A stretch of 64,000 bases of DNA. Source: Verrucomicrobiota bacterium (GTDB lineage: Bacteria; Verrucomicrobiota; Verrucomicrobiia; Limisphaerales; AAA164-E04). The translations under genes were made by a program, and so were the position numbers. The DNA lies in the NCBI GenBank assembly GCA_047947115.1, contig CP170459.1:4032001-4096000 (forward strand). Direction: 5' to 3'. Positions 1 to 60,100 of the stretch are shown piece by piece (position 1 is the first letter of the stretch; each line of letters opens with the position of its first letter). The notes under the pieces are model-generated. The model was not told where the DNA came from and did not search any database. It saw only the letters and a program-made list of their open reading frames with translations.

Positions 1-74
1 ATCACACGCTTCAGATTTCCGTCGATGTGATGGCGGACGGTGAGCTGCAGGAATATGCCGCCAACCCAATTTAA
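1..74 (+). CDS. 3' end of a CDS entering from the left edge (…HTLQISVDVMADGELQEYAANPI*), product unknown
   Basis: Open frame from nt 3 to TAA at 72-74; overlaps the convergent minus-strand stop. Confidence 0.5.
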   Translation, partial: HTLQISVDVMADGELQEYAANPI

Positions 75-355
75 TGGTGTGTCAGTAAATCGATACGATG
101 CGGTTCTCTTCCAAGTTGGATCACCTGGTTTGGTTCCTGAAAGTCCAGTGCAGAAAGCCCCAAGGACGAAACCCCGAATTCCTCCAGCACATTGACAATT
201 TCTTCCGCGTTTTCAGGAGATGGATGAATGAAAAAATAGATATCCGTCTTGTAATCACAAGACCATGCCAGGGCTTGCGCGCCCACGATGAGGAACTCAA
301 CTTTGTGAGAGTTCAACAATGTGATTAACTCTTTCAAGTCCTGGTAGAGTTTCAC
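71..355 (-). pseudogene. Truncated nucleotidyltransferase (MNT/DUF6036-like) remnant
   Basis: GTG at 355 gives KLYQDLKELITLLNSHKVEFLIVG…HPSPENAE…QLGREPHRIDLLT. The RxTxDxD motif is degenerate (YKTDIY) and the ORF stops right after RIDLLT. Confidence 0.6.
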
Positions 356-480
356 TTTCGCTTGCATTCCCAAAATGCAGTTAACTCAAGCAGAATATCC
401 ATTCGTTGAACAGGAGTAAGGCTGCGAAAACAGGCGTTATCAGCTTCTTCAGCTCCCCGATTCAACAGATACCTGGCCAA
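352..480 (-). pseudogene. Small partner-gene remnant upstream of the nucleotidyltransferase
   Basis: Manual translation LARYLLNRGAEEADNACFRSLTPVQRMDILLELTAFWECKRK*; GTGA stop/start overlap with the downstream gene. Confidence 0.4.
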
Positions 481-628: not shown

Positions 629-1435
629 ATGAGGTTTTTAAAATTAAATCCATTGTTGGGTGGGCTTTGTGTGGCCTCCCTGGTGGTTTGGGCTGGTTTC
701 GGCGGGACATCCTGCGGTACCACTCATCAAAGGGCGGTGGTTCGGCTTCCCCAGATCGAGGGGGCCGCTTTTGTCGGGAATGCCGCTTGTTCGGATTGTC
801 ATACGAATATCGTGGAGACGTTTCCCGCGAGTCCGCATGCGCGGTTCCACCTCGCTGAAGCAAATCATTCCGGGGAGTCCGGATGCGAGTCCTGTCATGG
901 GGCCGGCAGTCTTCATGTCAAGGCCGGTGGAGGTAAAGGGGTGTTTATTCATAATCCGGGGAACAGTCCGGATTCCTGCCTGGAGTGTCATCGGGAAATT
1001 CATGCAAAATTCAGTCTACCGAATCGACATCCGGTGATGGAGGGGCAATTGAATTGTGTCGATTGCCATGATCCACACGGACGCGACATCTTCAAACCGT
1101 CCTCCTCAAATGGTCTTGCATTTGCCCGCTTGAATCAAAATTGTTCGGAATGCCACCAGGAGCAGGCCCGCAATTTTGTGTTCGAACATGAGGCCATGCG
1201 GGAGGGGTGCACTGAATGTCATGACCCCCATGGTTCGGTGAATCCAAAGATGCTGGTTCAGCGTGATTCCAATCTTTGCTTGAAGTGTCATGCCCAGACT
1301 CAATTCGCCGGTTCCGGGGATATTTTCATCGGCAAGGAACCGCATGGTTTCAATATGCAGGCGGGCGGTTGCTGGACCGCTGGTTGTCACACACAGGTCC
1401 ATGGGTCCATGGTCGATCCCAAATTAAGATTTTAA
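629..1435 (+). CDS. MtrA/DmsE-like multiheme c-type cytochrome (7 CxxCH + 1 CX4CH)
   Basis: CSDCH, CESCH, CLECH, CVDCH, CSECH, CTECH, CLKCH and terminal CWTAGCH; CHGxGSxH, CHDPHG and F-EH motifs and VHGS end are typical of the MtrA/DmsE family; N-terminal signal peptide. Confidence 0.9.
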   Translation: MRFLKLNPLLGGLCVASLVVWAGFGGTSCGTTHQRAVVRLPQIEGAAFVGNAACSDCHTNIVETFPASPHARFHLAEANHSGESGCESCHGAGSLHVKAGGGKGVFIHNPGNSPDSCLECHREIHAKFSLPNRHPVMEGQLNCVDCHDPHGRDIFKPSSSNGLAFARLNQNCSECHQEQARNFVFEHEAMREGCTECHDPHGSVNPKMLVQRDSNLCLKCHAQTQFAGSGDIFIGKEPHGFNMQAGGCWTAGCHTQVHGSMVDPKLRF

Positions 1436-1451
1436 CCTCAGGAGCCCCCTT

Positions 1452-3845
1452 ATGAGATACCATCAACAATCCTTTCTTATGCGCTCCATTCGACGAACCT
1501 TCGGTTGGCAACTAGCCGCTATGATGCTGGGTGGTGCCGGTTTCACCTTGGGATATGGACAAGAATTGCCACCTCCGGCGGATCGCAAGGTTGACTTCAC
1601 AACCGATATTCTTCCGATCCTCAAGGAAGCCTGCTTTCAATGTCATGGACCGGAAGAAGCCAAAGGCGATTTCCGAATGACGACCCGGGAAAACCTGCTG
1701 AAAGAAGGCGATTACGGTGTCAATGTGATCCCTGGCAACAGCGCTGAAAGTCCACTGATCCAGTTCGTCGCTCATCTGGAGGAAGATTCGGAAATGCCCC
1801 CGATCGGCAAGGGAGACAAATTATCCGATGAAAAAATCGGCTTGTTGAGGGCATGGATTGATCAGGGCGTGGCATTTGAAGAGATATCGGAGGAATCGTT
1901 TTACTTCCGGGTCACTCCTGAGTTTCGATTCATTGGAGTGGATGGAAACAAGTCCGCTTTTCGTGAGCATAATTGGATGCGAGATGGAGTGAATGGTGGT
2001 TTACATGATTTTGAATGGAAACAAACCATGGAGGGCGGGAAAACCTTCAGCGGTTCCGGACGTGTGATGGCCCCTTATGATCAGTACGCCATCGAAGCGG
2101 AAATCACGCAGCGGGATTTGGGGTTCTTCCGTTTTGGTTTGAACCAGTCACGATCATATGACGATCCTTATGGCGGTTACTCCCCTGCTTTCGGTCTGGG
2201 CCCCTGGGCGGTAGGGCGTGATCTGCATACTGATTTTTCCAACGCTTGGTTCGAATTGGGATTGGATCGTCCCGACACGCCAAAATTTACATTCGGATAC
2301 GAATACCGGGCACGAGACGGTGCCAAGTCCATGTTGCAATGGGGGCCGGCTTTTGATGCGGCTTTCAACGGCCATAATGTTTATCCCGCCTGGAAGCGAT
2401 TGGATCAGGAAACTCATATCATCACACTGAACGTGGAGCACACGTGGAACGGGTTTCGGATCGAAGACAATTTAAGAGGAGAGTTCTATCAACAGAACAA
2501 CACTCTGTACACGGGAGATTTCATCAATGCTGGAGATGCCCTTCCGGCGACGGTTTCGACTGAAAATGATGATTACGATCATTTCCAGGGCTCGAATGCG
2601 CTTACCGTGGAAAAACGGTTCAAACCGTGGTGGCTTGCCAGTGGCGGTTACTATTATTCTCACCTGAGTGGCGATGCCAAATTGTCACTGGGCAACTTTG
2701 ATCCGAGCAATCCTGCTGCGGCTGGCCTGCCCTTTGATTCACGCGGCATTCAACTCAGTTCCGAGTCGCACATCGTCAATATCAACAGTCTGCTTGGCCC
2801 CTGGAAACAGTGGACGGCCTATGGTGGGGTCCAGACGGAATGGACCCGCCGTAAGGGTACCGGAAACACCACCTTTTTCGGTGTCCCAACCACACTTGGC
2901 ACCAACACGGATCGTTTTCAAATCGAAGAGAATTTCGGCATTCGAAACACCAGCCTTCCCAACACCATCATTTACACCGATGTGAGGCTTCAGCAGGAAT
3001 CCATAGGGCAATCGGAGAGCGGACTCCTGAACGACGGTTTCGATGCGCAAGATGATTTCATGCGCGACACCGATGCCACCGGACGACATGCCCGATGGGA
3101 TCTTGGAACCACCCTGTCCCCTTGGGACAACTGGACGTTTCAACCGAACTACGGATACAAGCGCCGACATCATGACTTCAAGCATCTGCTGGACACGGAC
3201 CGCGGTCCGGAGCCGGGCAACGGCTATCCAGCTGCTTTGCGAGAACGTGAAACCGAAGGGCAGGATTGGGGAATGACTGTGGGATGGAAGCCGGTTCGTT
3301 GGTTAAAGACTTCGCTGGCCTACGAAGGTGAGCAAGCCGATTATCGCACCGACATCAATGCGCTGACGCTGTTCGGAGTTGCCTACCCCGCTGGATCGAC
3401 TTTGGCAGGGAACTATGACAGTCACACCTATCGATTCACCACGACACTGAGTCCGGCTCAACGTTGGTATTGGACCGGCAGCACGAGCTACACGGACATG
3501 CGCATCGTTTCGAGCATGAACGACAACACCTCGATTGCTCCTTATGACGGTGAATTGTTGAGTCTGTTCACATCATGGACATTTCTCTACAGCCCAAGCA
3601 CGACGCTCCAATCCAGCTACACCTTCAATCACGCGAACTACGGCCAGACTTTGCCCCTCGGATTGCCGATGGGCTCCGAATTCGATCAACATGCCTGGCG
3701 ATGCGATGTGCGCAAAAAGCTTGGAGAATCCGATTCGCTTGGGATTCAATACGCCTATTTCCGTTATCGCGATGACCTCGCCGCAGGTTTTCTGGACTAC
3801 GACGCGCATGGCATTTTTATCACCTGGAGCCGAATCTTCCAGTAA
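1452..3845 (+). CDS. Outer-membrane beta-barrel (MtrB/PioB-like) with an N-terminal planctomycete-type cytochrome c domain
   Basis: Signal peptide; VDFTTDILPILKEACFQCHG…MPP…LRAWIDQG heme domain; then ~650 aa of aromatic-rich amphipathic beta-strands (G-NKSAFREH near the barrel start) ending ITWSRIFQ; 16 bp downstream of the multiheme cytochrome. Confidence 0.75.
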   Translation: MRYHQQSFLMRSIRRTFGWQLAAMMLGGAGFTLGYGQELPPPADRKVDFTTDILPILKEACFQCHGPEEAKGDFRMTTRENLLKEGDYGVNVIPGNSAESPLIQFVAHLEEDSEMPPIGKGDKLSDEKIGLLRAWIDQGVAFEEISEESFYFRVTPEFRFIGVDGNKSAFREHNWMRDGVNGGLHDFEWKQTMEGGKTFSGSGRVMAPYDQYAIEAEITQRDLGFFRFGLNQSRSYDDPYGGYSPAFGLGPWAVGRDLHTDFSNAWFELGLDRPDTPKFTFGYEYRARDGAKSMLQWGPAFDAAFNGHNVYPAWKRLDQETHIITLNVEHTWNGFRIEDNLRGEFYQQNNTLYTGDFINAGDALPATVSTENDDYDHFQGSNALTVEKRFKPWWLASGGYYYSHLSGDAKLSLGNFDPSNPAAAGLPFDSRGIQLSSESHIVNINSLLGPWKQWTAYGGVQTEWTRRKGTGNTTFFGVPTTLGTNTDRFQIEENFGIRNTSLPNTIIYTDVRLQQESIGQSESGLLNDGFDAQDDFMRDTDATGRHARWDLGTTLSPWDNWTFQPNYGYKRRHHDFKHLLDTDRGPEPGNGYPAALRERETEGQDWGMTVGWKPVRWLKTSLAYEGEQADYRTDINALTLFGVAYPAGSTLAGNYDSHTYRFTTTLSPAQRWYWTGSTSYTDMRIVSSMNDNTSIAPYDGELLSLFTSWTFLYSPSTTLQSSYTFNHANYGQTLPLGLPMGSEFDQHAWRCDVRKKLGESDSLGIQYAYFRYRDDLAAGFLDYDAHGIFITWSRIFQ

Positions 3846-57100: not shown

Positions 57101-60100
57101 ATGAAAAACACGCATGCCCTTCATTACAACAGGTCGGCTTTTCAGCGACTCTCCGCTGTTTGCCTGAATACCCTGGTTTGCCTTTTTTCCTATGCTTGGA
57201 TCAACGCTGCCAGCAGTGAATCGATCTCCTTTGCCCGCCAAATCAGACCCATCCTTTCCGACGCTTGCTTTCAATGCCATGGCCCCGACGCGAACAAACG
57301 GAAAGCAGGTCTGCGTTTGGACCAGGAAACGTCCGCCAAAAAGCAAATTGACGGAGTCTGGATCATCAAAGAAGGCGCCCCCCATGACAGTGATTTCATC
57401 GATCGTATCTTTACCTCGGATCCGGATGAAATCATGCCTCCGCCAAAGTCGGGGAAAACATTAAAAGAGGAAGAGAAGGCAATGCTGAAAACCTGGATTG
57501 AGCAAGGAGCTCCCTGGGAAATGCATTGGTCTTTCGAACCCCTCCATCGTCCGATTGTGCCGATCGTGAAGGATTCCGAGTGGCCGGTCAATCCGATTGA
57601 CTTTTTCATTTTATCGAAACTGGAGAAGGAAGGCATCCGCCCATCCCTTCCAGCTAATCTAAATACACTTGCTCGCAGACTTCATTTGGATCTGACCGGA
57701 CTACCACCTACGGTCGAAGTTACGAGACGATTTGTGGACTCTGAAGATCCGCTGGACTACGAGCGAATGGTGGACTCCCTGCTTGCGGACAAAGCCTATG
57801 GAGAAAAACTGAGTACCCATTGGCTGGACCTGGTTCGATATGCAGACACGGTTGGATATCATGGCGACCAACCCTATACCGTGTGGCCATATCGTGATTA
57901 TGTGATCGACGCCTTCAATTCCAACATGCCATTTGACCGCTTTACCCGGGAACAAATTGCTGGCGACCTTTTACCGAATGCCACACGCACCCAGAAGGTG
58001 GCTTCAGGGTTCAATCGATTGCACATGATCACCGCGGAGGGAGGCGCTCAAGACAAGGAATATCTTGCAAAATATGCGGCCGACCGAGTGCGGACCACCG
58101 CCGGTGTTTGGTTGGGGGCGACCATGGGGTGCGCCGAATGCCACGATCACAAGTATGATCCTTATACGATGAAAGACTTTTACAGCCTTGCCGCCTTCTT
58201 CGGAGATTTGAAGGAAAAAGGTTTTTATGGAGGATCTGTCTGGGAACCCGAGATGCCCCTCCCTTCCAATTCCCAGGAACAGGAGCAGGACCAGCTTCTG
58301 ACGAGAGTTGACACTCTTCAGAAACAATTGGCAACTCCCACCAAGGAACTGACACAAGCACAATCGGCATGGGAAACATTGGTACAAGATTTGGCATCAC
58401 AAGGTCGCCTTACCTGGATTCCGATTCAGCCCGAACAGATTGCCAGTGAGAATGGAACTGAATGGATTCAGCAGGCCGATCTTTCCATCCTCACACGCGG
58501 TCCGAATCCTGAACAGGAAACCTTCACCTTACAATGGGAACCGGGCCAGGAAGAAGCCATCACCGGACTGCGGTTGGAAGCTCTCACCCATCCATCCATG
58601 GACAAGATGTCTCTTTCCAGAGGCGGCGGCAACTTTGTGCTGAGCGAAACGATCCTGACAGTTGTTCGAGGTGATAATGAAATCCCGATCAAGATCGAAC
58701 ATGCGGAAGCCGACTTCGCTCAGAATAATTTCGACGCTCGCCGCGTTCTCGATGGGAATGAAGAAACAGGATGGGCTGTCGACGGCGCCAACAAGAAGGA
58801 AAACCGGCAACTCCTCCTCACATTACAGGATGCATTCCACCCGCAAACATCCGACACCTTGAAGCTGAGATTGAAATTCACCTCAAAGCACAAACATCAT
58901 GTGATGGGAAGATTTCGTCTGACTTCAACATCGGTTCCCGATCCCGTTTTGAGTGAAACAGGTTTGTCGGATGAGATCTATGGCATTGTCACCAAACCAT
59001 CCACGGATCGAACGGAAGATGAAACAGCTCAACTGACCAAACATTTCATGGATCGCACTCCTTTGCTGGATGAAGCACGCACTCAACTGGCATCCGTAAA
59101 AAGGCGATTGGACACGCTCAAAAACGAGATTCCTACCATGCTGGTTTCCATGTCGGTCAAACCTCGGGTCATGCGCATCCTTCCTCGAGGGAACTGGATG
59201 GATGATTCCGGCGACATCGTGCAGCCTGCGATTCCGGATTTTCTGGATTCGGAAGGGTTGAACAAAGAGGAAAGCCCACTGTCCCGGATGGATCTGGCCA
59301 ATTGGCTTGTCTCGGATAAAAACCCTCTCACCGCACGCCACTTCGTGAATCATTTGTGGAAAATCTATTTTGGCTATGGCCTTGCAAGGGTTATGGAAGA
59401 TACTGGATCGCAGGGAACACCCCCTACTCACCCGGAATTGATCGACTGGCTGGCATCGGAATTTATCCGTAGTGGCTGGGACGTCAAACACATCGTTCGC
59501 CTGATGGTCACGTCCCAAACCTATCGTCAAACCTCAACACCCAGCGACTGGCTGATGGAGCGCGATCCCTACAACCGACTTTATGCACGACAGTCGAGAT
59601 TTCGTCTGGATGCAGAAATCATACGGGACCAGGCGTTGGAGGTGTGCGGTCTGTTGATGGATCAGGTTGGTGGACCCAGCGTCAAACCGTACCAACCGGC
59701 AGGTTATTATTCCCAGCTCAATTTCCCCAAGCGAACATATCAACATGACACGGGTTCCTCCCAATACAGAAGAGGGCTCTACACCCACTGGCAACGCACA
59801 TTTCTGCATCCCATGCTGAAAGCTTTCGATGCACCAACCCGTGAGGAGTGCACCGCTCAACGCCCTCGATCCAATACTCCCCTACAGTCACTGAACCTGC
59901 TGAATGATCCATCATTTGTGGAGGCTGCCCGCACCTATGCCGCTGAAATTTTAACCTCCGGCAGAGGTTCGGATCGTGAACGTATTCGAAGCGCATTCGA
60001 AAAAGTCACCTTAAGGCCTCCCAGTCACAAAGAACTTCAAATACTTGAAGACCTGCTAAATGACATGAGGGACGGATACCGGACAAATCCGGAACGGGGC

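Follow-up and report, generated by a model that had tools for sequence, protein, structure and literature searches.

An octaheme-porin gene pair of Limisphaerales with a predicted MtrB-like barrel and a fused PSCyt1 heme domain

A 64,000-nucleotide (nt) stretch of a Verrucomicrobiota genome from the order Limisphaerales (contig CP170459.1, positions 4,032,001 to 4,096,000; hereafter the window) contains two adjacent genes that likely encode a heme wire across the outer membrane. The first (629..1435, + strand) specifies a 268-amino acid (aa) octaheme c-type cytochrome that is related to MtrA, DmsE and GSU2203 and is a predicted lipoprotein. The second (1452..3845, + strand) begins 16 nt past the end of the first open reading frame (ORF) and specifies a predicted MtrB-like outer-membrane beta-barrel of 797 aa with its own monoheme cytochrome domain. 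The two genes are neighbors in nearly all loci read. We consider it probable that they form an MtrAB-type conduit in which the octaheme cytochrome sits in a 26-strand barrel and the fused monoheme domain serves as a tethered shuttle at the periplasmic mouth. The system is real, conserved and common, and it is a porin-cytochrome variant that has already been glimpsed in print. The present analysis adds the predicted MtrB fold, an identification of the heme domain, the two-lineage structure of the family and the pattern of shuttle replacement.

The cytochrome carries seven CXXCH motifs and a final CWTAGCH (CX4CH). Its residues 114-261 align with residues 180-324 of MtrA (6r2q_A, E 6e-24), which matches hemes 3-8 to hemes 5-10 of MtrA, the last six in that protein. 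In MtrAB, these six are the barrel-buried and outward hemes, with heme A1 about 20 A into the periplasm (PMC7198977). The hemes that are absent relative to MtrA are thus those of the periplasmic half. The protein also scores against NF041028 (GSU2203; E 6e-48) and TIGR03508 (the DmsE decaheme family; E 5e-41, 140.8 bits versus a cut-off of 192.2), in both cases below the cut-off. The noncanonical eighth motif (1370..1390, +) corresponds in the alignment to heme A10 of MtrA, which faces outward (PMC7198977). Its C220, C225 and H226 are invariant, and one relative (L084) has a plain CXXCH at this position. Every motif residue is conserved across 120 aligned octahemes, together with exactly eight invariant histidines outside the motifs. 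Because these suffice for eight bis-His hemes, the CX4CH site is probably real.

The start of the cytochrome is predicted to be a lipoprotein signal, which went unmentioned in the sequence-only reading. Cys29 (713..715, +), the putative lipid attachment site, belongs to a lipobox-like GTS-C behind a hydrophobic signal and is invariant in the octaheme alignment. A cysteine behind a hydrophobic stretch also occurs 23-27 residues ahead of heme 1 in the partners encoded at all 37 fused and all 40 unfused loci, these being loci whose barrel does or does not carry the heme domain. The equivalent protein of Limisphaera is reported as a Sec/signal peptidase II (Sec/SPII) substrate (PMC13608581).

An AlphaFold2 model of the 797-aa protein, built from 115 sequences, has a mean predicted local distance difference test (pLDDT) score of 91.6 and a predicted template modeling (pTM) score of 0.84. 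It consists of a helical domain followed by 26 strands, as counted from the DSSP element list, and the predicted MtrB-fold barrel occupies 1896..3842 (+, about aa 149-797). The first four strands are short and a helix lies between strands 1 and 2; equal N-terminal features, short first strands and a capping helix, are described for MtrB (PMC7198977). The top Foldseek match of the barrel is MtrB (6r2q_B; E 2e-13, template modeling scores 0.61/0.70). MtrB is also the best match by VIA-align (Z 22.2, root-mean-square deviation [rmsd] 3.5 A, 558 aligned residues, 12% identity), ahead of runners-up that reach Z 18.3 with far fewer residues aligned. Together with the MtrA alignment, this fold match bears out the MtrAB-type architecture proposed in an earlier sequence-only reading of the window.

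The fused domain (1584..1871, +, about aa 45-140) contains a CFQCH heme motif at 1632-1646 (+, aa 61-65) and an MPP at 1794-1802 (+) whose Met115 (1794-1796) is the likely distal ligand. Both ORFs and the CFQCH lie where the sequence-only reading had placed them. Pfam PF07635 (PSCyt1) matches aa 61-117 with E 5e-16 and 59.5 bits (gathering cut-off 22), in agreement with the earlier claim that this domain differs from the cytochrome domain of Cyc2. A CXXCH arises in just 2 of 20,000 shuffles of the barrel protein. The two cysteines, the histidine and the MPP are invariant across 115 sequences, and the MPP follows the CXXCH by 49-50 residues in 117 of 119 homologs, which is consistent with a His/Met-ligated heme. 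Folded alone, the domain reaches pLDDT 81. Its nearest solved folds, at modest scores, are FoxE (Z 9.0 with an rmsd of 3.2 over 102 aligned residues) and PccH (Z 5.3), and a Foldseek search with the domain alone returned nothing at E<=0.001.

An assembly chimera can be ruled out as the origin of the fusion: the heme motif is kept in 119 of the 120 listed homologs and the fusion recurs in many independent genomes, which answers the conservation check suggested in the sequence-only reading. The barrel protein has 282 homologs at E<=0.001, and all 120 listed carry PF07635. Those with names are Verrucomicrobiota, including Pedosphaera and subdivision 3. A profile search with the barrel gave 1,558 representatives at 50% clustering, and among the best 150 of these the heme domain is present in 52 and absent from 98.

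The barrel topology makes a placement of the heme domain at the periplasmic mouth likely. The domain is separated from the first strand by 30-33 residues in 107 of 109 measurable homologs, and this near-constant spacing suggests that its position is fixed. It is highly unlikely that the arrangement instead resembles that of Cyc2, with the monoheme domain plugging the barrel and the lipoprotein octaheme on a membrane face, at the outer surface in the manner of MtrC or OmcB. N-terminal domains do plug Cyc2 and TonB-dependent barrels (PMC5566968), the octaheme is a predicted lipoprotein, and a Limisphaera table names its equivalent a putative outer-membrane cytochrome (PMC13608581). However, unfused barrels that lack a heme domain have the same lipoprotein octaheme, the 26 strands of MtrB are retained, and homology ties the octaheme to the part of MtrA that is buried in the barrel. 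Two homologs (P0034 and P0271) have tandem PSCyt1 domains on their barrels, which favors a tether outside the barrel over a plug.

A genome sample of the order yielded the barrel in 225 of 301 cases, against 30 of 401 for the phylum and 3 of 151 for another class; in two of these last three genomes it reads as unfused. In a tree of 93 barrel rows, one change (support 94) sets 38 fused barrels apart from 55 unfused ones, although this is a quick, midpoint-rooted tree in which the order of events is not proven and one 'fused' row (L092) is cut by a contig end. Two unfused barrels of another class branch beside the fused group. The topology fits a single gain of the heme domain, and the octaheme tree splits into the same two lineages. 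Both types occur together in ten genomes of the tree (G000, which is the present genome, G436, G438, G442, G515, G518, G523, G527, G658 and G667). Fused and unfused pairs are thus two paralogous lineages, and the unfused barrel of this genome lies at C1:463189-465099. A scan of genome contigs with the single protein gave only one full-length locus.

Two observations concern individual loci. The unfused barrels nearest the fused lineage (L103 and L104, in genomes G337 and G247) are followed by a tetraheme c554-like gene, a possible ancestral layout. In genome G623, a 1085-aa ORF (L067:9003-12260, -) seems to join octaheme, heme domain and barrel. This three-part fusion was rejected: a frameshift precedes the last heme motif, which lies in a different frame, and because the sister locus L086 has two intact genes the joined ORF is probably an assembly error. 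Alignments built around it misplaced porin rows onto the octaheme.

The two lineages differ in their neighborhoods. The unfused paralogous operon of this genome (L063, G000:C1:459547-469027) looks like a complete envelope-spanning chain. It encodes, in order, an octaheme, a barrel with an acidic N-terminal extension, a monoheme cytochrome c, a pentaheme, a 4Fe-4S protein and an NrfD/DsrP-type membrane protein, and a divergent gene for a nine-heme secreted cytochrome lies alongside. Among loci of up to 19.5 kb that were picked for long contigs, counted without two that are cut by contig ends (L092 and L102) and two unfused ones of the other class (L103 and L104), a separate monoheme gene accompanies 30 of 41 unfused pairs (directly downstream in 23) and none of 37 fused pairs. 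Other multihemes occur at 36 of the 41 unfused loci and a quinol-type module (NapC/NirT or NrfD) at 24, versus none of the fused loci for either. No further ORF with at least three CXXCH motifs, such as would encode an MtrC-like surface decaheme, was found at any of the 37 fused loci. Within 20 kb around the pair in the window (locus L064), no other ORF contains a CXXCH and no MtrC-like or quinol-oxidizing gene lies beside the pair, as the sequence-only reading had noted for the adjacent genes. Since the shuttle gene is absent at fused loci, the fused domain likely stands in for the soluble shuttle of the periplasm. Most simply read, the fused domain would have come to occupy the shuttle's position and so let the pair stand alone.

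Motif counts of the partners reject one earlier proposal, in which the extra heme on the barrel compensates for a partner of reduced length. Compensation predicts longer partners for unfused barrels, yet these pair with the same octaheme: all 40 unfused and all 36 fused partners (76 of 76, L067 excluded) have eight motifs. A wider count, in which some loci were fetched twice, finds eight motifs at 94 unfused and 64 fused loci. Six further partners have fewer motifs (four are cut at locus edges, one has masked bases and one is split by a frameshift), and four loci have no separate partner.

If the pair is a conduit with a tethered shuttle, both proteins would be exported by Sec and would acquire their hemes in the periplasm, as in MtrAB. 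The lipid-anchored octaheme would then insert into the barrel from the periplasm, so that heme 8 faces outward and hemes 1-2 stay at the periplasmic end, close to both the lipid anchor and the fused heme. The fused His/Met monoheme would do the job of the separate small cytochrome in the unfused sister operons, and electrons would be exchanged with inner-membrane complexes encoded elsewhere. The His/Met monoheme PmcA of Sideroxydans offers a precedent, as it binds both MtoA and the inner-membrane protein ImoA (PMC13390432). In this arrangement the extra heme would have a periplasmic relay role, as the sequence-only reading had suggested. Because an MtrC-like partner is missing, soluble outside partners such as Fe(III) chelates and humic quinones may be favored over minerals; Shewanella without MtrC keeps reducing Fe(III) chelates (PMC7198977).

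Within this model, we slightly favor outward flow in anaerobic respiration over inward flow. Limisphaera strains for which such a pair is listed use ferric citrate and ferrihydrite in respiration (PMC13608581), and He et al. found their porin-multiheme clusters only in humic bog genomes (PMC5615132).

Several points weigh against a conduit with a tethered shuttle. Heme attachment, methionine ligation and lipidation are each predicted from sequence. The window barrel matches neither of the MtrB_PioB hidden Markov models (HMMs; PF11854 and TIGR03509), and MtrB was not retrieved by a PDB profile search with the porin. The HMM check suggested in the sequence-only reading thus succeeds for the PSCyt1 domain, which scores above its cut-off, and fails for the barrel. 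Kinship of the barrel to MtrB is consequently one of fold, and the modeled barrel would be MtrB-like in its working yet no HMM-level member of that family. The neighborhood contrast suffers from the selection of long contigs, and only its CXXCH count is independent, as the unfused loci themselves supplied the sequences for the monoheme and quinol profiles. Moreover, it sets one lineage against another and represents one evolutionary event, not 78 tests; it is a pattern rather than a statistic. The fused domain is acidic to neutral, whereas the separate monoheme is basic, and the separate-monoheme profile has no match in the fused proteins. As judged from these sequences, the two are different subfamilies of opposite charge. 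The replacement would then be functional, with no literal gene fusion, and the partners may differ. Finally, iron reduction by Limisphaera cannot be assigned to the fused pair because an unfused cluster is present too (PMC13608581).

It is somewhat unlikely that the main role of the pair is uptake, as in MtoAB and PioAB, with electrons passing from Fe(II) or reduced humics through a high-potential fused heme to heme-copper oxidases or alternative complex III. The anatomy would be common to this reading and to the preferred one. Uptake would agree with the lack of an MtrC-like or quinol dehydrogenase gene near the fused pair and with the three heme-copper oxidase subunit I matches and three NrfD-family genes in the genome. 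The fold of the heme domain is nearest to FoxE, a His/Met cytochrome of iron oxidation (PMC10654088), and to PccH, but the scores are modest, and the potential does not follow from His/Met ligation: PmcA, the His/Met partner of MtoA, has a low one (-143 mV; PMC13390432). Cupredoxin-domain genes lie near several fused pairs, but these encode variable secreted immunoglobulin (Ig)-domain proteins and not a conserved operon member. Similarly, the strains listed as having the pair include the type species L. ngatamarikiensis, and its genus includes strict aerobes, but cultured Limisphaera are heterotrophs shown to reduce Fe(III) (PMC13608581).

PSCyt1 domains are abundant in this genome (62 matches, mostly in proteins of 800-1100 aa), which points to a mobile module. 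The pair may have a non-respiratory role, either as a redox sensor or by supplying electrons to periplasmic PSCyt1-family enzymes or to reductive iron uptake, with PSCyt1 as a docking module that was spread by shuffling. The pair does stand alone among unrelated genes and is kept beside a fuller respiratory paralog. However, no regulator, transporter or enzyme was found to be conserved beside the fused pairs, and the partner in such a reading is hypothetical. We regard such a role as distinctly unlikely. A bolder version of the conduit, which we rate as rather unlikely, retains the electron transport: the two proteins would form a nine-heme conduit with a hard-wired periplasmic contact that plugs into the large and so far unexplained PSCyt1 protein network of the Planctomycetes-Verrucomicrobia-Chlamydiae (PVC) bacteria, possibly carrying electrons inward while the unfused paralog carries them outward. 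If true, PSCyt1 would gain its first defined job, and an order that is abundant in soil, peat and marine habitats would have a near-core link for exchanging electrons with the outside.

RNA contigs lend weak support to expression of the pair. One 3,303-nt contig (estuarine run X1, from a close strain) starts at window position 625 and spans both genes. Run X2 has pieces across 647-2704, X3 has almost none and X5 has scattered ones. Altogether, 20 RNA runs contain part of the stretch, none of them at least half, and the unfused locus is likewise covered in the same runs. These contigs carry no strand or level and possibly derive from DNA; their depth cannot rank the paralogous loci, and uncovered stretches are no evidence. 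Scans for sigma-70 promoters and terminators gave hits at chance level only.

A few further genes may be recorded here. A short ORF at window 71-373 (-) resembles a truncated nucleotidyltransferase-type gene. A further PSCyt1 domain lies at window 57266-57445 (G000:C1:4089266-4089445) within a 1046-aa frame. Genes for secreted proteins with cupredoxin and Ig domains recur near fused pairs (L070, L074, L075, L083, L092, L095, L097, L100 and L101), although their position and form vary. In two genomes, a DUF2231 membrane domain fused to PSCyt1 is encoded beside the fused pair (L094:7681-8637 and L097:6712-7572), and this protein is a possible inner-membrane partner. Elsewhere in the genome, separate from the barrel locus, a 423-aa frame (G000:C1:1532943-1533719) has weak matches to PF11854 and to the GSU2204 family model NF041027.

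In studied conduits, free and transient shuttles link the wire to the periplasm, and the choice of shuttle sets the direction of flow. Because the likely shuttle is fixed to the porin in the fused pair, the junction between wire and periplasm could be isolated and assayed as a single complex. The pair also provides a handle on PSCyt1, a domain for which we know of no function. Since so common a barrel goes unrecognized by the standard MtrB models, extracellular electron transfer in Verrucomicrobia is undercounted in annotation. A precomputed PF11854 mark is present in 4 of the 120 listed homologs, one homolog scores 18.5 bits versus a cut-off of 240, and a single-sequence PDB search with the porin returned nothing. 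The question is testable now, as cultured iron-reducing Limisphaera appear to carry both versions.

Among known systems, MtrAB of Shewanella (PDB 6R2Q; PMC7198977) shares the 26-strand fold, the short first strands, the capping helix and a homologous multiheme gene directly upstream. The pair described here differs in having eight hemes instead of ten, a last motif of the CX4CH type and a predicted lipoprotein partner, and its barrel has a monoheme domain, no accompanying MtrC and 12% identity to MtrB. GSU2203/GSU2204 (NF041028 and NF041027; PMC13188914) likewise combine an MtrA-type cytochrome with a CXXCH-containing MtrB/PioB-type barrel, but the partner there is a decaheme and the present barrels fall far below the NF041027 cut-off. 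The window barrel itself has no match to that model, none of five genomes exceeds its 350-bit cut-off, and 10 of 70 barrels match weakly (best E 1.6e-9). Cyc2 resembles the fused protein in that a single chain combines an outer-membrane barrel with one c-type heme on its N-terminal side (PMC5566968, PMC13741234). However, its barrel has about 16-17 strands (PMC10654088) and no MtrA-type partner, unlike the 26 strands, PSCyt1 domain and obligate octaheme neighbor found here.

Verrucomicrobial systems come closer. The porin-multiheme complex of He et al. (2017) pairs a porin of at least 20 strands with an eight-heme cytochrome, and, judged by description and not by sequence, it very likely belongs to the same family. 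Its authors call it non-homologous to MtrAB, the text searched contains neither 'fused' nor 'fusion', and neither it nor seven searchable supplements link PSCyt1 to a porin (PMC5615132). The EET3/EET4 clusters of peat Verrucomicrobiota are Limisphaerales porin-multiheme clusters that are modeled as Mtr-like and expressed in situ. They are multi-gene, include extracellular cytochromes and bear more resemblance to the unfused lineage, and the main text of the preprint is without the words 'fused', 'monoheme' and 'planctomycete' (bioRxiv 10.64898/2026.05.27.727921).

The Limisphaera paper describes a Sec/SPII cytochrome with 6-7 motifs that adjoins a porin whose N-terminal part holds a single heme motif; at a second locus, the porin has 26-28 strands and no heme (PMC13608581). 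Matched by description, these appear to be the same two types as in the present genome. The porin is filed there as OMR-family and unrelated to MtrB, and MtrB is said to have such a heme motif too; the available text leaves the domain unnamed and proposes no role for it. The sequence-only reading therefore overstated the novelty, since a porin with an N-terminal heme motif is in print and the NF041027 family exists. In literature that leaves most subscription papers outside its coverage, we found no description of a PSCyt1-porin fusion or of its link to shuttle-gene loss.

The layout of the unfused sister operons has its counterpart in Sideroxydans, where MtoAB occurs without MtrC and together with MtoD/PmcA/ImoA, which include a small monoheme shuttle and a NapC/NirT protein (PMC13390432). 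The fused pair differs from this system, which has a free monoheme protein and a ten-heme wire.

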